The position numbers were made by a program, and so were the translations under genes. Source: Gammaproteobacteria bacterium (GTDB lineage: Bacteria > Pseudomonadota > Gammaproteobacteria > CAKMZV01). From it: a stretch of 64,000 bases of DNA. Positions within the stretch are counted from its first letter, which is position 1. Each line of letters opens with the position of its first letter. Below the pieces are notes generated by a model. That model ran no database searches. It saw nothing but the letters and a program-made list of their open reading frames with translations, and had not been told where the DNA came from. The stretch is from the NCBI GenBank assembly GCA_965219665.1, contig CBDCOD010000017.1, forward strand, positions 6,069-70,068, given 5' to 3'. This document shows, piece by piece, positions 1 to 19,909 of the stretch.

Positions 1-129
1 ACAATTTTTGGCTGCATCGCACCTCCCAACATACAATCAACTCTACCCACCAATGGCTTTATTCTACACATATCGCCCGTTCGCAGTAGCAAAACCCACT
101 GAAAGCAACATCTATATAGCTGGAAATGG

Positions 130-166
130 ATAGCGGGTAAATGCAATACCTGCTATGCTATTTTTT
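130..166 (+). terminator. Candidate rho-independent terminator for a + strand gene lying left of the window
   Basis: 10-bp stem ATAGCGGGTA (130-139) / TACCTGCTAT (147-156) with one G-U pair and a 7-nt loop, then GCTA and TTTTTT (161-166). The T-run exists only in the + sense; in the minus sense the wobble becomes a C-A mismatch and no U-run follows. Confidence 0.35.
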
Positions 167-454
167 CAGTTTATTCAACCACCCATCCAACATGTCCACC
201 AGCGTGTTCACCTCTGCTTTAGAAACTTGCTGGTTGTACGGGCTGCTAACAATCGTATCTATCAATGTGCTGACTGTTTTTTGTTTAACCAAGTCAGACT
301 CAACCGAACTGCTAACCTGAGCAAATGACTGAGAAGTGGCTTTAGGTCGTTTTAGATTAGGTACGCGCAGGCGTGACTTGAGCAAGGCGGCTCTGCGGCA
401 ATTAATAGAATATACTGCTGGCGTGGGCGTCTGTTTGAGTGAGTAGGATGCCAT
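158..454 (-). CDS. Hypothetical small protein, last ORF of the buf/sigma operon
   Basis: 98-codon ORF with ATG at 454, overlapping the end of the upstream ORF by 53 nt. Basic N-terminus and helical-looking C-terminus. I recognise no family and see only a weak SD. Confidence 0.3.
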   Translation of the reverse strand: MASYSLKQTPTPAVYSINCRRAALLKSRLRVPNLKRPKATSQSFAQVSSSVESDLVKQKTVSTLIDTIVSSPYNQQVSKAEVNTLVDMLDGWLNKLKK

Positions 455-1007
455 TATGCACCCATATTTTTACATACGCGCCATGCTTGGTGGGTATCGT
501 CTGCGCTTGGTTGAGTGCAATACGTTCCAAACTGGTGTTGTGGTAGCGTACTTGATAAAAGGTTTCAATTACCCCAGTCTGCTTATTACGAATGCGCACT
601 TGCGCCCCTTTTTCGCCATTTAAGGAGCAGTAGCGTCCGCCAAGCACTTCCCATTGTCCCATATCAAGTACCTGACTCATAGGCAACAACTTGAATGGTA
701 ATTTACTGAAGAAGGTTTGTAGATTCTCATCATTTGCCGACTGAATTTCTAACGCTTTTGCCTTAATATGATTGCTCACCGTCTCCGATGCTAATGAATA
801 CACGCTCACTGGCTGCACTATATTAAATGTACTGACGAACAGCCACGCAGACAGCATCAACAAGATAGATGCGGCTGCTCCAATAAATAGCGGCTTTCGT
901 GAAGCAAAAAAACTTCTCTTCTGTTTGCTTTGCAGTAATACCAACTGCGCATCACTCAACTGCCTATCACTATAACGCTCCCTAATCAGATCACCTAATT
1001 TATTCAT
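402..1007 (-). CDS. Putative membrane-anchored anti-sigma factor (single-pass)
   Basis: ATGA start/stop overlap with the ECF sigma gene (1004-1007). About 38-aa cytoplasmic N-terminus, one hydrophobic helix (PLFIGAAASILLMLSAWLFVSTF), about 135-aa periplasmic domain with a single Cys. The call rests on position and topology only; there is no HxxxCxxC zinc motif. Confidence 0.5.
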   Translation of the reverse strand: MNKLGDLIRERYSDRQLSDAQLVLLQSKQKRSFFASRKPLFIGAAASILLMLSAWLFVSTFNIVQPVSVYSLASETVSNHIKAKALEIQSANDENLQTFFSKLPFKLLPMSQVLDMGQWEVLGGRYCSLNGEKGAQVRIRNKQTGVIETFYQVRYHNTSLERIALNQAQTIPTKHGAYVKIWVHNGILLTQTDAHASSIFY

Positions 1008-1525
1008 TTCAAATACCTACTCAATTCATCTGATCGAATCGCTATCATTTTCTTTCTCAAACGTGCCACTCGAGAAAGCAGTGTCCCTTTAGCGATTTGT
1101 AACTCCTCAGCAATTTGCTCATAGGACATTGCATCAATTGCCAACATACTCAAAATCCCTTTATCCAACAACTCTAATTGATCCCACCAATACTCCAACT
1201 CATCACTTACCACCAACTCATCTAAAAAATTTTGCTCACATTCCACCAATGCTAAGGTCTCATCATCAACCAGTATAGGCTGCACCTTACGAAAGGTGTC
1301 GATTGCTCTATGCCGAATGACCGTCCTAATATAACTCATGCGACACGCACTGTTTCGTGGCGGCTTGCGAACACAAATTTCTAAAGCTGTTTGCAATAAA
1401 TCAAAAGCATCAATCTCCTGCTTGCTATAGTGTAAACAATAGCGATACAGGGTATGCAATTCACGCTCGCTATACACTAATACGCCTTGCTCTTTAAACC
1501 CATTAACCAACGCTTGCTTAACCAT
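1004..1525 (-). CDS. ECF-type RNA polymerase sigma-70 family factor
   Basis: 173 aa. Region 2-like segment DLLQTALEICVRK...YIRTVIRHRAIDTFRK and region 4 HTH MSYEQIAEELQIAKGTLLSRVARLRKKM. ATG at 1525. Confidence 0.85.
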   Translation of the reverse strand: MVKQALVNGFKEQGVLVYSERELHTLYRYCLHYSKQEIDAFDLLQTALEICVRKPPRNSACRMSYIRTVIRHRAIDTFRKVQPILVDDETLALVECEQNFLDELVVSDELEYWWDQLELLDKGILSMLAIDAMSYEQIAEELQIAKGTLLSRVARLRKKMIAIRSDELSRYLK

Positions 1526-2259
1526 GCTTGCAAATACTCAAGCGACACAATACCATCACGCAGCAGTTGCTCTAGACTATGCGCGTAACTACGTGCCTGT
1601 ACAGTGCGTAATATTTTTGCCTCTACGGCATCCATATTATCAATACACGCATTAAAACCTTGTGTGTAAACCACCATCCAACCACGCCTTAACGTTTGGT
1701 CTATTTGAGCATACGGATGATGCTGCTCCAATAATTGGGCATGATGTGCTGAATGGATATAGCACACAGTCAAGCTGGGCATGAAATCCAAAAATAAAGC
1801 ATCTAATGGCTGCGACTCAATTAAACTCTGCCAGTGTTCAGCGGAAACGGGTGCTGGTTGCTGCGCGTAATAGTTCAACTCCAATGCTTGCTCACAGTGC
1901 GCCAAGGAGCGTAACCCATGTATTTTTGACTCAGGGTACTGTACAAACAACTGCAAAAACCGCTCACCATATTGTGCTAAGTCAATATGCACCGAATCGG
2001 TGTGTAAAAAATAGTAGCGCGCCATACCAACTAAGGTGTCACCGAGTAGTTGCTGTAGGCAGGGGAAACGTCCTAAAAGAGCATCTATATGCGCATTTTG
2101 AACGGTTTGTTGATAAATACGATGTCGCGCATTCTCTCGTGAGGGCGCGTCTAAAGCTTGAACGATATTATCTGTTGACGCCTGTTGACGCCAAATCATA
2201 TTGATAAAATCGCTCTGTAACTGTTTAAGCGACTTTGGAGGTGATAATTTCTCTCGCAT
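1477..2259 (-). CDS. bufC: DUF2063 family protein, BufC-like partner of the MNIO enzyme
   Basis: Sits immediately after the DUF692 gene. The N-terminal SLKQLQSDFINMIW resembles the conserved DUF2063 start. I chose the ATG at 2259 (GAGG 6 nt upstream) rather than the ORF-track start at 2301. Overlaps bufB by 35 nt. Confidence 0.75.
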   Translation of the reverse strand: MREKLSPPKSLKQLQSDFINMIWRQQASTDNIVQALDAPSRENARHRIYQQTVQNAHIDALLGRFPCLQQLLGDTLVGMARYYFLHTDSVHIDLAQYGERFLQLFVQYPESKIHGLRSLAHCEQALELNYYAQQPAPVSAEHWQSLIESQPLDALFLDFMPSLTVCYIHSAHHAQLLEQHHPYAQIDQTLRRGWMVVYTQGFNACIDNMDAVEAKILRTVQARSYAHSLEQLLRDGIVSLEYLQAWLSKRWLMGLKSKAY

Positions 2260-3052
2260 GGTCTGCCTCATCCAGAATAACTGATAGCGGTGGAATGTCA
2301 TTATCCCATTCGATCAGCGTAGGAATTGACCCCGCCTGCTGTATGAATTGTCCATATAGTGACCACACCTGAGGATGTACGGGATTATTATGCGCGTCAA
2401 TAACATAATCGCCACAATCTTCAAAGCCTGCCAAATGAATTTCAGCTACCCGAGAGGCATCAATATCGCGTAAATATTGGTCAAAATCGGTTCCATTATT
2501 GCGATATGCCACATAGATGTTATTGATATCAAAAAGAATCTTACAATCTGCCTCTTGAGCAACCATAGAAACAAACTCGCCTTCACGCAAAGTAGAGTCT
2601 TTGAAATTCAAATACGTGGATACATTTTCTATAGCAAAGGGCACTTCCAAATAGTCTTGAACCAATCGGATGCGCTGTGCAACATACTGCGCTGTTTCTT
2701 CTGTGTAGGGCAAGGGCAATAAGTCATGTGATTGGAGACCATGTACTGCGCACCAGCACAGATGATCAGACATAAGCCACGGATTAGTAGCGCGCGCCAA
2801 TGTTTTAAGTGCCTTCAAGTAATCTGCATTCAAGGGGTCAGCACTGCCTATGGATAAGCCAACCGAATGCAATGATACGGGATACAACTCGGCAATAGCC
2901 TCTGCTTCCTTGAAACTTCTAGTATTCTCCTGTAGATGATTATCTGCCAATAATTCCATCCAAGCAAGTGGCGGCTGCTCCTCCACAATTTGCCGAAAAT
3001 GGTTGGAGCGCATGCCAATACCAATCTGCGCTATTTCTGGATTACTAAACAT
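2225..3052 (-). CDS. bufB: DUF692 family multinuclear non-heme iron oxidase (MNIO), BufB/MbnB-like
   Basis: IGIGMRSNHF...WMELLADNHL...HSVGLSIGS...EIHLAGF...TLIEWDNDIP is the TIM-barrel DUF692 pattern. Start set at ATG 3052 (MFSNPEIAQIGIGMR), because the track's TTG start at 3115 reads through a 28-bp perfect palindrome. Confidence 0.85.
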   Translation of the reverse strand: MFSNPEIAQIGIGMRSNHFRQIVEEQPPLAWMELLADNHLQENTRSFKEAEAIAELYPVSLHSVGLSIGSADPLNADYLKALKTLARATNPWLMSDHLCWCAVHGLQSHDLLPLPYTEETAQYVAQRIRLVQDYLEVPFAIENVSTYLNFKDSTLREGEFVSMVAQEADCKILFDINNIYVAYRNNGTDFDQYLRDIDASRVAEIHLAGFEDCGDYVIDAHNNPVHPQVWSLYGQFIQQAGSIPTLIEWDNDIPPLSVILDEADHAREIITSKVA

Positions 3053-3083
3053 GCTATATGCATTAAAGGCTATATAAGAATAA

Positions 3084-3111
3084 CCTACTGCATGCGTACG
3101 CATGCAGTAGG
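3084..3111 (-). terminator. Intercistronic hairpin / candidate attenuator between bufA and bufB
   Basis: Perfect 28-bp palindrome CCTACTGCATGCGT|ACGCATGCAGTAGG, giving about a 12-bp stem with a GUAC loop. It begins 18 nt after the bufA stop codon. In the mRNA sense it is followed by UUAUUCUUAUAU. Confidence 0.5.
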
Positions 3112-3129
3112 TCAAGCGTGAAGTATAAA

Positions 3130-3417
3130 TTACTTCGCAGGCTTAGTTGCAGCGACTATACCGCCCGTGAGCTTAGCACAAGTTCCCTTTGGAACATATA
3201 CCCACTCATTGTCGCTGTTGTTGCTCGTTGCCTGCCCGGCACAGCCATGCTTTTTATTCAAAGCACCGCAATCATTCTTGCCTGCTTTAGATACGCCAGC
3301 ACACTTCTCCCAAAATTTAGGTGTGTCAGGCACTGCTGCCTGTGCATTCATAGCAATTGAACCGACTGCCAATACACCAGCCAAAATTGAGGATTTACAT
3401 AATGTTGATTTATCCAT
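3130..3417 (-). CDS. bufA: DUF2282 / BufA1-type bufferin precursor peptide (Sec signal peptide plus 4-Cys core)
   Basis: 95 aa. Signal peptide MDKSTLCKSSILAGVLAVGSIAMNAQA|AV. Core EKCAGVSKAGKNDCGALNKKHGCAGQATSNNSDNEWVYVPKGTCAKLTGG matches the DUF2282 signature. GGAGA SD 5 nt before the ATG. First gene upstream of the DUF692 and DUF2063 genes. Confidence 0.85.
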   Translation of the reverse strand: MDKSTLCKSSILAGVLAVGSIAMNAQAAVPDTPKFWEKCAGVSKAGKNDCGALNKKHGCAGQATSNNSDNEWVYVPKGTCAKLTGGIVAATKPAK

Positions 3418-3704
3418 GATATTCTCCGTAATTTACGTCATATAAAAAGCTTGCAGCCTACACAATGGTTGCAAAGCACTTACAGTACAAATAAAGTGTA
3501 CTACTTATATAGACGTTACGTAATCCGATTTCATTGCAAAAAAAGTGTAATAACTCATGCTATGGAGCGTTTTTTTTCTGTTATTATCGCTCTTATCACA
3601 GCAATGCAAGCCCAACGTAGTTGGTTTGCAGGTTTCAAAATCGAAGTATCTGCCTATTTTCTGTGCCTCAAGCCCACCACAGCATACAGTATTATGACAT
3701 TAAT

Positions 3705-5039
3705 TCACTCTCGCTCAACTTCAAAAGCGGTTAGTATACTATTGCCTGGATTATATCTCCCTTCTACCTCAATTCTATCACCTACAGATATTTGTAAAGA
3801 ACTTGAAAATCCTTCCAAGCGTGCTGACGTGACATCTACATTGATGAAAGCAGCAGTTGTACCATACTCAGTTGAAATGACCCTTACAATTAAAGTATTT
3901 TGATTTACGCGTTCAGAGACTATCCCATAAACCTCCGTATAATCCTGTCCACTCTCGCCATCGAAACTGCCTTCATATTCGACTTCATAGGCTCGTAGTA
4001 CGTTGGTAGCTGAATCATAGGCGCCCTCAACTTCTAATATAGCACCTATAGGTAAATCTATCACACTGGATAAACCCTCTAAACGTGACGCTGTGGCATC
4101 TACTGTGATAGTAGTAGTTGCAATATTTCCATACTCAGTTGAACGAACTGATAGTGAAAATATCCTTGATGCAGTGCTTACGGTAACTGAACCATATACT
4201 TCAAGATATTGCTCCCCAGCTCTGGTAACACCATCACGATCGTCATCGTCATCATGGAATCCGTCTTGATCAATATCACCATCACGATATCCATCTTGAT
4301 CTAGATCATCATCAAAGTATCCATCTCCGTCACGGTCATCATCAATATATCCATCCTGATTACGGTCATGGGCCAACATAAAGTCTCTATTGCCCTCTCT
4401 ACTATTTTGGGGGTTTGCATCTACTGGGTCAGCCAGCCCATCTGCATCTGAGTCATAAATTCCGCGCTGATAATCGCTATCAATGCTATTATGTATTCCA
4501 TCATAATCACTATCAGATGTCGGCGTACTATCCACTGTAATGACTGTAAGCGCAGCACTATACATTCTATGAATACTGTCTGCTACCCCATCGTCATTAC
4601 CATCTATGCCCTGCTGCTTTGCCTGTTGGCGGTTTGCTGCTAACGCAGTTAAATCTCCTAAATCTACTGAGGTTGACCCCGGTGCCGTAAAAACAGTATG
4701 AACATTGGTAGTCTGATCGTTATATATTTGAACAGCGTGCTTTATACTGTTCGTGCTGGACTGTTCATTACGTGTAAGTGCCAAATAATAGTTAATCCCC
4801 GGGTCTAATATAAGCACAAATGTGCTTTGACCGTCTCGCGTTTGGAGCGATGTAGTGGAATAATAACTACCATTAGTTCCAAACGCCTCAACAAGTGCAT
4901 CCGATACGCTCCCTTGTATTTGGAATGTGCTACGACCAGCTGCCGAGTCTATATTAGAACTAGATCGTGCGCTTTCCTGTCCACAGCCAAGTAAGGCTGC
5001 AAAGGCTAGACCTGATATAAAAAATTTTAAATGTTGCAT
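3705..5039 (-). CDS. Lipoprotein with acidic Ca-binding (thrombospondin type-3-like) repeats and two C-terminal DUF5666-like repeats
   Basis: Lipobox LLGC after a signal sequence. Run of DxDxDG-type motifs (DRNQDGYIDDDRDGDGYFDDDLDQDGYRDGDIDQDGFHDDDDDRDG). Two about 75-aa repeats (EVYG.V...R.EG......G..IEVEG......L.A.EVE). GAGGAG SD 8 nt upstream. Confidence 0.75.
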   Translation of the reverse strand: MQHLKFFISGLAFAALLGCGQESARSSSNIDSAAGRSTFQIQGSVSDALVEAFGTNGSYYSTTSLQTRDGQSTFVLILDPGINYYLALTRNEQSSTNSIKHAVQIYNDQTTNVHTVFTAPGSTSVDLGDLTALAANRQQAKQQGIDGNDDGVADSIHRMYSAALTVITVDSTPTSDSDYDGIHNSIDSDYQRGIYDSDADGLADPVDANPQNSREGNRDFMLAHDRNQDGYIDDDRDGDGYFDDDLDQDGYRDGDIDQDGFHDDDDDRDGVTRAGEQYLEVYGSVTVSTASRIFSLSVRSTEYGNIATTTITVDATASRLEGLSSVIDLPIGAILEVEGAYDSATNVLRAYEVEYEGSFDGESGQDYTEVYGIVSERVNQNTLIVRVISTEYGTTAAFINVDVTSARLEGFSSSLQISVGDRIEVEGRYNPGNSILTAFEVERE

Positions 5040-5164
5040 TATGAAGTCTCCTCATTGAATTTACTGACCACCACCTATAGATGGGCATAATGGCAGAATT
5101 ATAAGGAGGGCTGCCAGCAGATGATATAGGGCAGACAATCAAATTGAGTTTTAGGAGGTTTCTA

Positions 5165-5623
5165 CTAAGCAGGTTTTTCTCTATCTACCAATGTCAATAG
5201 AAAGTGACTAAGGAATTCATGTCTATTTTTATTATTGGATTTGTTAAATATGCTAATTGCCTGATTTTGAATAGTTTTTTCACTAACGCTCCGTAAGGAG
5301 GCTATCTCTTTATATGTAAACCCCTTTATAATCAGCATAGCGACTTCTTTCTCCGCTTTACTTAAAAGCCACCCCTCTAAAATATTTTCTATATAGACAG
5401 ACAAATCCTTTTCAAAGTCAGATAGTGCTTCCGAAGCCTCCCTAAGCCTAGCTTTATGTGCTTGTAACTCCCTAATGTTGTAGTATAACAACCAGCAAGC
5501 AAGTAACACAAATATTAATTCTATCCATAAGTGTACACCTATATCATCCACCCAAAAATCAAAAACAACATCCAGGACAAAGAAAGATAAGATAAATACA
5601 TTAATTATAACTATTTTATACAT
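5165..5623 (-). CDS. Membrane-anchored LuxR-family HTH transcriptional regulator
   Basis: Two N-terminal hydrophobic helices, a coiled linker, and a C-terminal LuxR/GerE HTH (LSKAEKEVAMLIIKGFTYKEIASLRSVSEKTIQNQAISIFNK). Confidence 0.75.
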   Translation of the reverse strand: MYKIVIINVFILSFFVLDVVFDFWVDDIGVHLWIELIFVLLACWLLYYNIRELQAHKARLREASEALSDFEKDLSVYIENILEGWLLSKAEKEVAMLIIKGFTYKEIASLRSVSEKTIQNQAISIFNKSNNKNRHEFLSHFLLTLVDREKPA

Positions 5624-5943
5624 AACTAACCTACTCCCGACTTATGGTACGTATTGTAAAATATTCTGTGCTTATTGACCAACTTTAGCGACACGCTGCG
5701 AATCGCAGTTTACGTTACAAAGTACTTACGCCAGAGCATACACTGTAATCTTACATTATTTATAATAAACGTCTTTGTCTTTTGATTAGGTAAACAAAAA
5801 GTCTACTGGATAGCGATATTTTGACAGAAAAAATCAGAACGTGAGGCTATTTTTATACTGGAAATGGCAACTACGGGCAGCACTACAATATTGATAAAAT
5901 TATTAGCCCTATCCTCATGTGCTTTATATCACTAATAATCTAG

Positions 5944-7323
5944 CTAATCTAAAGCCTTAAAGATATTTTCACACACTTTTTTGGCATCGCCGAAAACCAT
6001 GAAAGACTTATCTAAATAGAAAGCCGCATTAGGTATCCCTGCATACCCTGGCGCCATAGATCGCTTAATTATGAATATTTGCTTGGCATTTTGTACATCT
6101 AAAATGGGCATGCCATAAATAGGACTTGACTTATCTGTCTTCGCTGCTGGATTAAACACATCATTTGCGCCAATGACCAAAACAATATCAGTAGTTGAGA
6201 AATCACTATTGATTTCCTCCAACTCTAATATATCATCATAATCCACATCTGCCTCTGCCAAGAGTACATTCATATGACCTGGCATACGACCTGCTACTGG
6301 GTGAATAGCAAACCGTACCAATACGCCACGCTCCTTTAGGCAATCAACCACCTCTTTCAAAGCATGTTGGGCATGTCCTACTGCCATGCCATAACCTGGG
6401 ACAATAACAACCGATTCAGCATTCTGCATAAAATAGGCAACATCCTCTGCATGCGCCTGCTTAATTGACTCCCCTTCTGTTTGCACTACAGCAGTGGCAT
6501 CTTCTGTCCCAAAGCCACCCATCAATATACTAATAATAGATCGGTTCATGTTCTTGCTCATAATATAGCTGAGTATAGCACCCGATGCCCCCACCAGAGA
6601 ACCTGTAATAATAAGCACTGGATTAGACAAACTAAAGCCGATACCAACTGCCGCCCAGCCAGAATAGCTATTGAGCACAGACACTATCACTGGCATATCT
6701 GCACCACCAATAGGACTTACAGAAAGGAATCCAAAAAGCAAACCCACTACAAGCAGCAATACAAATAGCTCTAACTGTGCCTCATAGGCAAAAGCAACTA
6801 CTAAAGCAACTATAGTGAGTAAGAAAACGCCACTCACTACGCGCTGATTTTTGAACATAAGGAACTTCCAATTTGGAAAAACTCCTTGCAACTTCATAAA
6901 AGCAACGCACGAACCAGTAAAAGTAATAGAACCTATAACCAGCCCTACTGAAAGCTCTACTATCTGCCCAACATTTAACAAATCAATTCCATACTCTTCT
7001 GGTGACGTATACGCCGCAGACGCAATAAAAACAGCAGCCAAGCCTACAAAGCTATGGAATAACGCCATCAGCTGCGGTAAAGCTGTCATCTGAATGCGTA
7101 AGGCAATCAACGAACCAACCAAACCGCCAGACAAAATAGCAACAAAAATCCAAACAACATTATGTGTACTGGGCATAGCGATAGTGGTAAATACCACTAT
7201 TGCCATACCAACCATGCCAATCAGATTACCCCTTCGGGCACTAGATGGAGACGCCAGCCCGCGAATAGATAAAATAAAGCAAACTGCCGCAATCAGGTGA
7301 AAATAAACAGCAAAATTGTCCAT
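5944..7323 (-). CDS. pntB: NAD(P) transhydrogenase subunit beta
   Basis: 459 aa. Multi-TM N-terminal half plus a dIII NADP(H)-binding domain (VPGYGMAVGHAQH...HPVAGRMPGHMNVLLAEA...GANDVFNPAA). TAATG overlap with pntAB. Confidence 0.95.
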   Translation of the reverse strand: MDNFAVYFHLIAAVCFILSIRGLASPSSARRGNLIGMVGMAIVVFTTIAMPSTHNVVWIFVAILSGGLVGSLIALRIQMTALPQLMALFHSFVGLAAVFIASAAYTSPEEYGIDLLNVGQIVELSVGLVIGSITFTGSCVAFMKLQGVFPNWKFLMFKNQRVVSGVFLLTIVALVVAFAYEAQLELFVLLLVVGLLFGFLSVSPIGGADMPVIVSVLNSYSGWAAVGIGFSLSNPVLIITGSLVGASGAILSYIMSKNMNRSIISILMGGFGTEDATAVVQTEGESIKQAHAEDVAYFMQNAESVVIVPGYGMAVGHAQHALKEVVDCLKERGVLVRFAIHPVAGRMPGHMNVLLAEADVDYDDILELEEINSDFSTTDIVLVIGANDVFNPAAKTDKSSPIYGMPILDVQNAKQIFIIKRSMAPGYAGIPNAAFYLDKSFMVFGDAKKVCENIFKALD

Positions 7324-7610
7324 TACGACCTACTCTTACGCTTGGTGAACATAGACAGCATTCTATTGGTAATAAGAAAGCCCCCAAAAATATTAACACT
7401 TGCCAGAAAGATAGCGATAAACCCCAAAATTGCGCTTAAAGAAACGCCCTCTAAACCTGCAGCAATAATGGCTCCAACAATAACCACTGATGAAATCGCA
7501 TTAGTCACACCCATTAGCGGCGCATGAAGCGCAGGCGTTACTGACCAAACCACGTAATAGCCGACAAAGCATGCTAAAACAAATAAATATAACAGCGAAG
7601 TAAACTCCAT
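7323..7610 (-). CDS. pntAB: NAD(P) transhydrogenase subunit alpha part 2 (membrane part)
   Basis: 95-aa three-helix membrane protein between the dI and beta genes. This is the split pntAA/pntAB arrangement known from Rhodospirillum rubrum. Confidence 0.9.
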   Translation of the reverse strand: MEFTSLLYLFVLACFVGYYVVWSVTPALHAPLMGVTNAISSVVIVGAIIAAGLEGVSLSAILGFIAIFLASVNIFGGFLITNRMLSMFTKRKSRS

Positions 7611-7633
7611 TTTTATCCTTATCTTATAGAATA

Positions 7634-8770
7634 CTACTCAAAGAAAGCCTTCCAGTCCTCTGCTCTCAACACACCATCTTGGAACAACAGAGTCTGATCT
7701 AAAATATCATCCTCTATATCCACCTGTACTGTATTATTCTCGACTGATAATAGCTCCACAAAATGCACCATATTTTTAGCCAATAATTCGCTGGCAGTCT
7801 GCGCCACCATTGATGCCACATTGGAATAACCCAAAATATGCACACCCTCTTTACAAACAACTTTGCCATACTGACTCATACTGCAATTGCCACCAGCTGA
7901 CACTGCCAAATCAACAATGACTGACCCTTTTTTCATGCTTTTCACCATCGCATCATCTATGAGCACAGGGGCTTTTCTATTAGGAACCAACGCAGCACAA
8001 ATCACAATATCCTGCTCGGTAATCACTTGCCGAACCAAAGCATTTTGCTTCTGCATATAAGCCTCAGACATCGCCTTAGCATAGCCAGTAGAACTTTGAG
8101 CATCCTTAAACTCCTCATCCTCAACAGCGACAAACTTAGCACCCAAAGATTCCACCTGCTCTTTTGTACTGGGTCGCACATCTGTAGCACTCACTATTGC
8201 ACCTAAGCGTTTTGCTGTCGCAATGGCTTGCAACCCCGCAACCCCCACGCCCATCACCATTATCTTGGCTGCCTTAATCGTTCCTGCAGCGGTCATCATC
8301 ATTGGTACCGCTCGCGGCAAAAATTCAATAGCATCTAACACCGACTTATACCCGACCAGGTTGGCCTGTGAACTCAGCACATCCATAGACTGTGCTCGCG
8401 AGGTACGCGGAATACGCTCCAATGCAAACACATTAACCTTCTTCGCCAATAGTTTCTTGAGCACTTCAGCATTATGCATTGGCTGAGCAATACACACCAA
8501 ATACTTACCCGCCTCCAACAAATCGGTCTCTTTAAGTGTTGGAGGAGCCACCTTAAGTACCACATGGGCATCCTTCAGGGCTTCCACTGCATTTGCAACA
8601 ATTTTTGCACCAACAGCGATAAACTGCTCATCGCTAATGTGCGCCAAATTACCTGCACCACGCTCAACAACCACCTCAAAGCCTTTCTTTAAATACATTT
8701 GAACAGCAGCAGGACTTAATGCCACACGCCTCTCATGGGGTGCACTCTCTTTTAGAACAGCAATTTGCAT
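7634..8770 (-). CDS. pntAA: NAD(P) transhydrogenase subunit alpha part 1 (dI, NAD(H)-binding)
   Basis: 378 aa, alanine-dehydrogenase-like fold. MQIAVLKES..ERRVALSP and the Rossmann motif VMGVGVAGLQAIATAKRLGA. Confidence 0.95.
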   Translation of the reverse strand: MQIAVLKESAPHERRVALSPAAVQMYLKKGFEVVVERGAGNLAHISDEQFIAVGAKIVANAVEALKDAHVVLKVAPPTLKETDLLEAGKYLVCIAQPMHNAEVLKKLLAKKVNVFALERIPRTSRAQSMDVLSSQANLVGYKSVLDAIEFLPRAVPMMMTAAGTIKAAKIMVMGVGVAGLQAIATAKRLGAIVSATDVRPSTKEQVESLGAKFVAVEDEEFKDAQSSTGYAKAMSEAYMQKQNALVRQVITEQDIVICAALVPNRKAPVLIDDAMVKSMKKGSVIVDLAVSAGGNCSMSQYGKVVCKEGVHILGYSNVASMVAQTASELLAKNMVHFVELLSVENNTVQVDIEDDILDQTLLFQDGVLRAEDWKAFFE

Positions 8771-19545: not shown

Positions 19546-19909
19546 AAAAGCGAGCCGATCTATAAGCCGGGTTCTGTCATGAGCAGTCATTCATCTTGGC
19601 AAGCGTGTCACCACGCTGCTCTGCGCGAACTACCCGAAAGTCATGCGGGCAACATGTTGTATCCGAAGACACGTACTTTCCTATTTGTCTTGCTCCAGAT
19701 GGGGTTTACCCTGCCACTGCTGTTACCAGCAGAGCGGTGCGCTCTTACCGCACCATTTCACCCTTACCATTCACTACCTAAATAAGCTATGGCGGTATAT
19801 TTTCTGTGGCACTTTCCATCAGCTCACACTGTCCAGAAGTTATCTGGCATCTTGCCCTATGGAGCCCGGACTTTCCTCTGCGTACAGCGACTGCTTAACC
19901 GACTCGCCT
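19546..19909 (-). ncRNA. rnpB: RNase P RNA, bacterial type A
   Basis: The reverse complement contains GAGGAAAGUCCGGGCUCCAUAGGGCA, GGUAAGGGUGAAAUGGUGCGGUAAGAGCGCACC, GGUAAACCCCA and ACAGAACCCGGCUUAU, near-identical to the E. coli M1 RNA conserved regions. The 5' GCGAGUCGGUU pairs with the 3' GAUCGGCUCGC (P1). A T-run follows the 3' end. Ends are accurate to about +/-4 nt. Confidence 0.95.

Follow-up and report, generated by a model that had tools for sequence, protein, structure and literature searches.

How is a bufferin gene cluster switched on when it carries its own sigma factor, and which protein holds this sigma factor in check when the candidate partner resembles none of the known anti-sigma factors? 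This question is raised by the minus strand at positions 402-3417 of a 64,000-nucleotide (nt) stretch of DNA from a gammaproteobacterium (assembly GCA_965219665.1, contig CBDCOD010000017.1, positions 6,069 to 70,068), which is referred to below as the window. Five co-oriented, closely packed genes are located there in the order bufA-bufB-bufC-sigma-last gene, with "last gene" being the working name for the gene of a single-pass membrane protein. The explanation preferred here, with a probability of roughly 0.72, is a bufferin cassette governed by a self-activating sigma loop and a membrane-bound anti-sigma factor, with a hairpin that sets the dosage of the products. The features concerned are as follows.

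bufA, 3130-3417, minus strand: 95-amino-acid (aa) Buf1 (DUF2282) precursor
bufB, 2225-3052, minus strand: 275-aa enzyme, a multinuclear non-heme iron oxidase (MNIO)/DUF692 protein, bufferin maturase
bufC, 1477-2259, minus strand: 260-aa DUF2063 partner of the MNIO enzyme
Sigma gene, 1004-1477, minus strand: sigma factor of group IV (extracytoplasmic function, ECF); 157 aa when started at GTG 1477, or alternatively 173 aa from ATG 1525
Last gene, 402-1007, minus strand: candidate anti-sigma factor, 201 aa, single-pass membrane protein
Predicted ECF-type promoter, 3510-3538, minus strand: motif match upstream of bufA
Perfect 15-base-pair (bp) stem-loop, 3081-3114, minus strand: in the 77-nt spacer between bufA and bufB

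Identity and boundaries of the cassette

A first-pass annotation of the window had assigned the locus to the bufferin-type operons, and this assignment was confirmed by family models, by the equivalog of BufB, and by invariant residues in both BufA and BufB. Profile hidden Markov models placed the DUF2282, DUF692, and DUF2063 open reading frames (ORFs) above the curated cutoffs in all three cases, so that the subthreshold scores named by that annotation as a refutation did not occur. BufA matched DUF2282 (PF10048) with 75.7 bits at a gathering cutoff of 22.4, over model positions 1 to 51 of 53, and BufC matched DUF2063 (PF09836) with 44.1 bits (cutoff 27.2). BufB reached 331 bits with PF05114 (cutoff 25) and 326.8 with the NCBIfam equivalog NF050167, MNIO_BufB (cutoff 310), the latter over the complete model (1 to 262 of 262). 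The nearest solved relative of BufB was 3BWW, a DUF692 protein from Histophilus somni (E = 6e-41), with MbnB being farther away (E = 2e-8); the BufC protein alone had no match among the sequences of the Protein Data Bank (PDB). The BufB residues H95, E140, D173, N176, H204, D217, H219, and E246 were at least 97% invariant over 119 homologs, a pattern that we take to correspond to the iron ligands of the MbnB structures.

BufA possesses a Sec-type signal peptide as judged by inspection and alignment, with a basic N-terminal stretch, the hydrophobic ILAGVLAVGSIAM, and the end AMNAQA in front of AVPD. The tail of this signal peptide reads ILAGVLAVGSIAMNAQA directly before AVPD, and the context of the cleavage site was kept in 22 homologs. 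The core comprises 68 residues with four cysteines, C39, C50, C59, and C80, which were invariant in the 22 aligned homologs as part of the likewise invariant pattern AVPDxPKxWEKC...NDCG...HxC...GTC (motifs WEKCAG, NDCG, HGCAG, and GTC). The published definition of a Buf1 precursor, which requires four core cysteines, fits BufA (PMC11626156, PMC12452194). All sequence tests that could be applied identify the locus as a bufferin cluster of the Buf1 type. Its biosynthetic core adds one more member to a family already known and, by analogy, the peptide product is probably periplasmic and copper-binding.

All five minus-strand ORFs of the first-pass annotation were present at the positions given there, and the layout agreed with its placement of the sigma and membrane protein genes downstream within the same tightly packed unit. 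Among the overlaps it had reported, those of 35 nt between bufB and bufC and of 4 nt between the sigma gene and the last gene stood, and that of 49 nt between bufC and the sigma gene most likely did not. The bufC start at 2259, which produces the 35-nt overlap, agreed in the alignment with the homolog from L001, one of the two nearest related loci introduced below, and the bufC ATG is preceded by a GAGG ribosome-binding site; that of bufA is GGAG, 7 nt upstream of the ATG. At the junction of the sigma gene and the last gene, the start codon of the latter lies over the stop codon of the former in the 4-nt sequence ATGA. Conservation of 21 sigma factor homologs begins with the initiator Met of "MFD..L..LYRY," and the window protein aligns at this position with the Val encoded by GTG 1477. 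AAGG precedes this GTG, and in the sequence TAGTG a single G belongs to both the GTG and the stop codon of bufC (a 1-nt overlap). Because the homolog conservation starts at the residue encoded by GTG 1477, the 49-nt overlap is improbable and most likely an artifact of choosing the first ATG (1525); judged by this alignment, GTG 1477 is the likeliest start of the sigma gene, which would then span 1004-1477. The start of bufB must be ATG 3052, because the longer ORF from a TTG codon (3115) would open within the hairpin. All five window proteins aligned over their full length to profiles built from relatives, which indicates that no cassette gene is degraded. The region 402-3417 is a self-contained five-gene cassette.

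Linkage of the genes in related loci

Two sets of related loci were compared. The first was a genome set obtained by a scan with BufB, one genome per species, which returned 80 loci. The second was a metagenome set of 80 loci retrieved via the last gene with a nine-sequence alignment, and these are the closest relatives of the query. The order bufA-bufB-bufC-sigma-last gene occurred in 23 of the 80 genome loci, and these 23 carried the labels Ectothiorhodospiraceae, Thioalkalispiraceae, Methylococcales, Thiothrix, Thiodiazotropha, Halochromatium, Woeseiaceae, Porticoccaceae, and Betaproteobacteria and came from genomes and from metagenome-assembled genomes (MAGs). Complete genomes with the cassette include OZ255827, OZ255836, CP070643, and CP070775, and cultivable candidates for carriers are Gallaecimonas sp. 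GXIMD4217 (protein WP_341503423.1) and Halochromatium glycolicum DSM 11080 (L063). Where the contig of a metagenome locus was long enough, the last gene was accompanied by an upstream sigma gene (53 of 53), bufC (41 of 42), bufB (31 of 33), and bufA (26 of 28), figures that describe the subfamily of the query and not necessarily all 781 clusters of the last-gene family described below. The nearest relatives resided on two gammaproteobacterial MAG chromosomes of ~2.1 Mb, with BufB identities of 64% (L001) and 59% (L002). The window has the five cassette genes in common with both of them, but not the flanking genes.

The first-pass annotation had found no DoxX-type gene in the locus. A profile based on the bufD-like ORFs found in relatives, these ORFs having been verified as Pfam DoxX at 59.6 bits, gave no match in the 64-kb window, which extends that statement from the locus to the whole window. 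DoxX was present in 1 of 104 sigma-type loci (L052) versus 21 loci of the other type, where it follows bufC. Downstream of bufC, DoxX and the pair of sigma factor and membrane protein are almost mutually exclusive. The absence of DoxX does not disqualify the locus as Buf1, because DoxX (BufD) is dispensable in Caulobacter, being required for neither modification nor function (PMC11626156).

Two other arrangements were seen among the related loci. The L002 cassette (OZ255843, ~5500-8600) is apparently decaying, with bufC in three ORF fragments and a 5'-shortened bufB, and the −10 site of its promoter is GCGCCT in place of ACGTCT. In four loci from Cocleimonas/Thiotrichaceae MAGs (L018, L021, L025, and L069), which are without the sigma pair, the one bufB gene is preceded by a tandem row of four or five bufA-like ORFs.

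The sigma factor and the promoter upstream of bufA

The product of the fourth gene passed the models Sigma70_r2 (score 25.3, cutoff 24), Sigma70_r4_2 (26.5, cutoff 25.7), and TIGR02937 (48, cutoff 42.9) and is composed of the sigma2 and sigma4 domains only. A family profile from 12 sequences matched SigH and SigE of Mycobacterium tuberculosis at ~1e-19, full length across sigma2-sigma4; the protein alone had no match among the PDB sequences, and no specific NCBIfam subfamily scored above its cutoff. By these profiles, the fourth gene encodes a genuine but divergent and unclassified ECF sigma factor.

Upstream of bufA, a predicted promoter was found with the −35 site TGCAATGAAA (3538-3529) and the −10 site CGTCTA (3515-3510), leaving 17 nt between TGCAAT and CGTC. 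In short form this is TGCAATGAAA-N13-ACGTCTA; the complete site, TGCAATGAAATCGGATTACGTAACGTCTA at 3538-3510, was the sole match in the 64-kb window. Transcription is predicted to start near 3503, with a leader of ~85 nt. The consensus upstream of bufA in the relatives was TGCAATCAAA-N13-TCGTCTA with an invariant spacer, and it was present in 45 of 56 complete related loci. In its strict form, the motif occurred, within the first set, in 18 of 23 sigma-type loci versus 2 of 51 nonsigma loci (Fisher p = 7e-11). The independently retrieved metagenome set had it in 23 of 32 loci, and the background elsewhere was 1 match in 1.93 Mb of strand-bases. A looser pattern, which allowed C at the sixth base of the −35 site, T at the fourth base of the −10 site, and a spacer of 16 to 18, matched upstream of bufA in four nonsigma loci. 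In the case of L016, L048, and L068 among them, the contigs end before a sigma gene could appear.

A motif almost confined to sigma-bearing loci, and located ahead of the operon of this sigma factor, is what one would expect to see if an ECF promoter is autoregulated. The operon thus appears from its sequence to be autoregulated via a promoter recognized by its own sigma factor, and this conserved, almost exclusive promoter supports the positive autoregulation proposed by the first-pass annotation. The RNA structure of the 5' leader (3503-3415) was not unusual (z = −0.14), an Rfam search returned nothing near the cassette locus, and matches to sigma-70-like promoters in 1-5700 were at chance level (16 versus 15.2 expected).

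The last gene as a candidate anti-sigma factor

The last gene quite probably encodes an anti-sigma factor, as indicated by the architecture of its product, the translational coupling to the sigma gene, and the obligate co-occurrence of both. Of the sigma/anti-sigma pair claimed by the first-pass annotation, the sigma half was verified by the three models given above, and the anti-sigma half is deduced from position, architecture, and co-occurrence.

An exhaustive HMMER search assigned 781 clusters to the family of the last gene at E ≤ 1e-3 and 277 at E ≤ 1e-10, nearly all of 190 to 220 aa. The product had no exact counterpart on public contigs, and a word-indexed protein search returned the protein itself alone. 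MAGs of Gammaproteobacteria and Betaproteobacteria supplied the members of the family, apart from single ones annotated as Myxococcota and Nitrospinota. Three relatives with a name given by their source, among ten clusters looked up, were all called "hypothetical protein," as had been anticipated for a generic annotation of this system. No curated Pfam or NCBIfam model covers the window protein and 43 relatives. DUF3379 (PF11859) was matched by the window protein with 18.4 bits (E = 0.0014), below the gathering threshold of 33.2, and weakly by 4 of the 43 relatives (down to E = 4.6e-6) over the membrane helix and the first half of the periplasmic domain. No literature that links DUF3379 to ECF systems was found, and DUF3379 itself is uncharacterized.

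The AlphaFold2 model of the full protein had a pLDDT of 89.7, and that of the domain alone a pLDDT of 92 and a pTM of 0.85. In this model, two cytoplasmic helices (4-12 and 19-35) are followed by a membrane helix (41-61) and a compact periplasmic alpha/beta domain of 140 aa. The basic stretch KQKRSFFASRK ahead of the membrane helix indicates a cytoplasmic N terminus (N-in). In the family alignment, L17 and L25 of the N-terminal segment were near-invariant; E75, H80, F105, G123, R125, C127, Y151, and W182 of the C-terminal domain were invariant, with the motifs NH and GGRYCS. Foldseek searches of the PDB with the full-length and the domain-only models yielded nothing at E ≤ 0.001. The best match in both searches was RseB (E = 0.016 to 0.06; TM score, 0.28 to 0.38 normalized to the query), which is not significant, and the family profile had a chance match alone among the PDB sequences (E = 0.68) and no similarity to CnrY.

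Several known types of anti-sigma factors were considered and rejected. The NrsF type (DUF1109, PF06532), which has six transmembrane (TM) helices, is not applicable, since neither the protein nor the 43 relatives matched PF06532 and a single membrane helix is present. Residues 1 to 38 contain neither Cys nor His, so that the HxxxCxxC motif of a ZAS anti-sigma factor is missing. The class I anti-sigma domain comprises four helices in ~80 to 90 aa, and the last gene provides ~38 cytoplasmic residues with two helices. The class II architecture, as in CnrY, fits the model, with two short N-terminal helices and one membrane helix.

By analogy to the conserved cysteines of NrsF (PMC3511200), the invariant periplasmic residues His80 and Cys127 are possibly sensing residues. 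It may be suggested, tentatively and with some doubt, that minimal membrane anti-sigma factors dedicated to bufferin cassettes form a so far undescribed family, with the last gene as its first example, and that they sense periplasmic copper directly or the metal-loading of the bufferin.

The hairpin between bufA and bufB

A scan for terminator-like structures revealed the perfect 15-bp stem-loop at 3114-3081, followed by the T-rich stretch TTCTTATATA. The 96-nt segment with this hairpin folded with −30.5 kcal/mol (z = −4.0), and none of 200 shuffled sequences folded as well. L001 and L002 contain a different GC-rich hairpin plus T-run at the equivalent place between bufA and bufB. Over 111 loci, the 80 nt after bufA were more structured than controls, with a mean z of −1.8 to −2.7 compared to ~0. 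The hairpin may be a partial terminator or a 3'-end stabilizer that favors the precursor over the mRNA of the enzymes and regulators. The genes downstream of it, including the sigma gene, are probably expressed below the level of the precursor. A clear intrinsic terminator for the cassette itself was not found.

Comparison with known systems

Bufferins were characterized in 2024, when DUF2282 and six-Cys precursors, thiooxazoles, and copper protection were described (PMC11626156). The characterized DUF2282 bufferins have a very high affinity for Cu(I) and Cu(II). The buf1ABCD cluster of Caulobacter vibrioides resembles the window locus in its four-Cys DUF2282 precursor with a Sec signal, its BufB MNIO, its DUF2063 protein, and an equal gene order (PMC11626156). 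Both share control by an ECF sigma factor and a membrane anti-sigma factor (a candidate in the window) with important or conserved cysteines (PMC3511200). In Caulobacter, sigma-F/NrsF controls buf1 and buf2, and the conserved NrsF cysteines matter for function (PMC3511200, PMC11626156). There, sigF-nrsF is a separate transcription unit that is not strongly autoregulated, whereas the sigma pair is located inside the cassette in the window. NrsF is a DUF1109 protein with six TM helices; the partner in the window spans the membrane with a single TM helix and has 140 aa in its periplasmic domain. The Caulobacter promoter is GTAACC-N16-CGAA (PMC3511200) compared to TGCAAT-N17-CGTC here, and buf1 contains DoxX (BufD), which the window locus lacks.

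In Neisseria meningitidis, NMB2140-2145 encode DoxX, a precursor, MNIO, DUF2063, sigma-E, and the ZAS anti-sigma factor MseR, and this operon was shown in 2010 to be co-transcribed and autoregulated (PMC2893595). It resembles the window locus in the sequence of MNIO, DUF2063, ECF sigma, and then anti-sigma gene in one unit (co-transcription being shown for Neisseria), and the −10 site CGTCTA of the window equals that of the neisserial sigma-E, CGTCTAAH (PMC2893595). The neisserial precursor (gonophorin cluster) is of the EGKCG type (PMC12668002), with EGKCG repeats, and not DUF2282. DoxX is first in the operon, MseR is a small cytoplasmic zinc-binding (ZAS) protein, and the −35 site is GTMAGBWTT with a spacer of 12 to 13 nt. 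Haemophilus influenzae has an equivalent operon, which RpoE2 governs in trans (PMC7907618). The rpoE7-ecfR7 sigma/anti-sigma pair of Sinorhizobium meliloti adjoins and controls an operon for a membrane protein, DUF692, and DUF2063 (SMb20530-20527), but in a divergent two-operon layout and with a SigF-like promoter, TGTAACA...CGAAT (PMC6180224).

The CnrYXH system of Cupriavidus metallidurans is a metal-responsive, autoregulated ECF system, in which the 45-residue cytoplasmic part of CnrY forms two helices around CnrH (PMC6851896). CnrY is a single-pass protein with a two-helix cytoplasmic segment of 45 aa compared to ~38 aa in the last-gene product. CnrY has almost no periplasmic part and a separate sensor, CnrX, whereas the candidate in the window has a fused periplasmic domain of 140 aa.

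A survey on MNIO clusters published in 2025 states that Buf1 clusters can contain sigma and NrsF genes, and its supplement gives Sigma70_r2 near 23% and NrsF near 12% of the MNIO genes, with DUF3379 never being mentioned (PMC12452194). The difference between 23% and 12% means that a sizeable share of the sigma-linked MNIO clusters has another partner. In the main text of the ECF reclassification paper, DUF692, DUF2063, and DUF2282 were not found. The hard-wired sigma/anti-sigma design is precedented (PMC2893595, PMC12452194), and no description was found in the literature of this sigma/anti-sigma pair, its promoter, or its near-exclusive relation with DoxX. New here are the family of the membrane partner and the promoter; the peptide system and the self-regulating layout were already known.

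Proposed mechanism and alternative explanations

By analogy to Caulobacter Buf1, BufB and BufC would convert C50 and C59 of BufA to 5-thiooxazoles in the cytoplasm. The peptide would be exported, the signal peptide cut between AQA and AV, and a C39-C80 disulfide formed, yielding a small folded product that chelates excess periplasmic copper. One ECF promoter, recognized by the sigma factor of the cassette, would transcribe the operon and generate a positive feedback loop. At rest, the two short cytoplasmic helices of the last-gene product would hold the sigma factor, as in class II anti-sigma factors such as CnrY. The periplasmic domain would sense envelope stress, most likely a thiophilic metal and possibly via His80 and Cys127, and the sigma factor would be released. 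Most transcripts may end or be stabilized at the hairpin behind bufA, which would result in an excess of precursor and damp the gain of the feedback.

Some observations weigh against this explanation. The last gene has neither detectable sequence similarity nor significant structural similarity to known anti-sigma factors, so that its assignment draws on position, topology, and co-occurrence. The signal peptide of BufA was called by inspection and alignment only. In the −35 site of the window, one conserved position is occupied by G where the consensus has C, and the strict motif is absent from 11 of the 56 complete loci. If the hairpin terminates efficiently, expression of the sigma gene would depend on read-through. 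Finally, the inducers of related systems vary, being Cu, Au, Cd, and Cr in Caulobacter and Legionella and HOCl or other oxidants in Haemophilus (PMC7907618).

Instead of an anti-sigma factor, the last gene might encode a membrane-anchored periplasmic bufferin accessory protein, for instance, a chaperone, receptor, or redox partner, that replaces DoxX, with the sigma factor being controlled from elsewhere or constitutively active. A cytoplasmic part of just ~38 residues, dissimilarity to every known anti-sigma family, and the near exclusivity of DoxX and the last gene downstream of bufC (1 of 104 versus 21 loci) would agree with such a function. The exclusivity holds equally for the sigma gene, however, which points to two cassette lineages and not to a one-for-one functional swap. 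Moreover, the last gene always occurred together with the sigma gene (53 of 53) and is translationally coupled to it, and a pair of short amphipathic helices at the N terminus, followed by one membrane helix, is the architecture of a class II anti-sigma factor (PMC6851896). An accessory protein is improbable.

The signal and the extent of the feedback loop may also be seen differently. The cassette might respond to oxidative or hypochlorite stress of the envelope and not to metals, copper buffering not being the main role of the peptide. The unlinked DoxX-MNIO-DUF2063 operon of H. influenzae is RpoE2-dependent and induced by HOCl (PMC7907618), the −10 site CGTCTA is identical to that of neisserial sigma-E (PMC2893595), and redox sensing would be an equally possible function for the single invariant periplasmic Cys of the sensor candidate. 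This possibility is nevertheless not very likely in view of the tight binding of Cu(I)/Cu(II) by characterized DUF2282 bufferins and their protection against copper (PMC11626156). Generators of reactive oxygen species do not induce the sigma-F regulon of Caulobacter (PMC3511200), and Neisseria and Haemophilus use cytoplasmic ZAS anti-sigma factors and EGKCG-type precursors (PMC12668002), unlike the window locus. Positive feedback would not exist at all if the hairpin were an efficient terminator, so that the ECF promoter drives bufA alone and the other four genes are constitutively expressed from an internal promoter. The strength of the stem (15 bp; the 96-nt segment folds with −30.5 kcal/mol) and the T-rich tract behind it would be compatible with termination, but this tract is interrupted (TTCTTATATA), and no sigma-70-like site above chance is located between the hairpin and bufB. 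Many relatives are nearly without a bufA-bufB spacer and yet keep the promoter and the gene order, and the whole six-gene operon of Neisseria is co-transcribed (PMC2893595), all of which makes the absence of feedback highly improbable. A self-activating cassette with a membrane-bound anti-sigma factor remains the preferred explanation.

Neighborhood of the cassette

Directly upstream of the cassette, 3705-5039 (minus strand) encodes a predicted lipoprotein of 444 aa with an Asp-rich (DxDxDG-like) middle part and a C-terminal DUF5666 (34.3 bits). The ORF at 5165-5623 (minus strand) encodes a 152-aa protein with a hydrophobic N terminus and a helix-turn-helix of the LuxR/GerE type (30 bits), which is weakly similar to the LIC13292 regulator family. 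Both genes were rejected as members of the cassette, their relatives adjoining the module in 0 of the 80 genome loci. The DUF5666 lipoprotein is probably unrelated to the cassette because it never adjoins it in related loci. On the other side, a 98-aa ORF at 158-454 (minus strand) overlaps the 3' end of the last gene by 53 nt. It had no Pfam match, and none of the fetched loci contained a relative. On the plus strand, 130-156 holds a terminator-like hairpin followed by a T-run.

Farther away, 19547-19906 (minus strand) contains a bacterial RNase P RNA of class A (302 bits, full length). One uninterrupted ORF, 13,714 aa in length (~41 kb), occupies 22821-63965 on the minus strand. Three 3,000-aa segments of it that were scanned carry Cadherin, Calx-beta, and bacterial TSP3 repeats, a composition that fits a giant Ca2+-binding surface adhesin.

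Significance

Among the peptides modified by MNIO enzymes, bufferins form the largest group, and as a copper-defense system they are widespread. The switches of bufferin clusters described so far are sigma-F/NrsF of Caulobacter and sigma-E/ZAS of Neisseria and Haemophilus. The window locus and ~100 relatives would represent a third, compact solution, with one promoter, a sigma factor, and a single-pass sensor candidate inside the cluster. Members of the regulon can be sought in complete genomes with the promoter consensus, and the family of the sensor candidate offers a handful of invariant periplasmic residues for direct mutation. The module is a candidate for a portable sensor of metal or envelope stress. 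If the periplasmic domain senses copper or the loading state of the bufferin, this would mean that the peptide titrates its own inducer and closes a product-feedback loop. The picture of what bufferins are is left unchanged by these data, and added to it are a regulatory variant and a working label for a family of hypothetical proteins.

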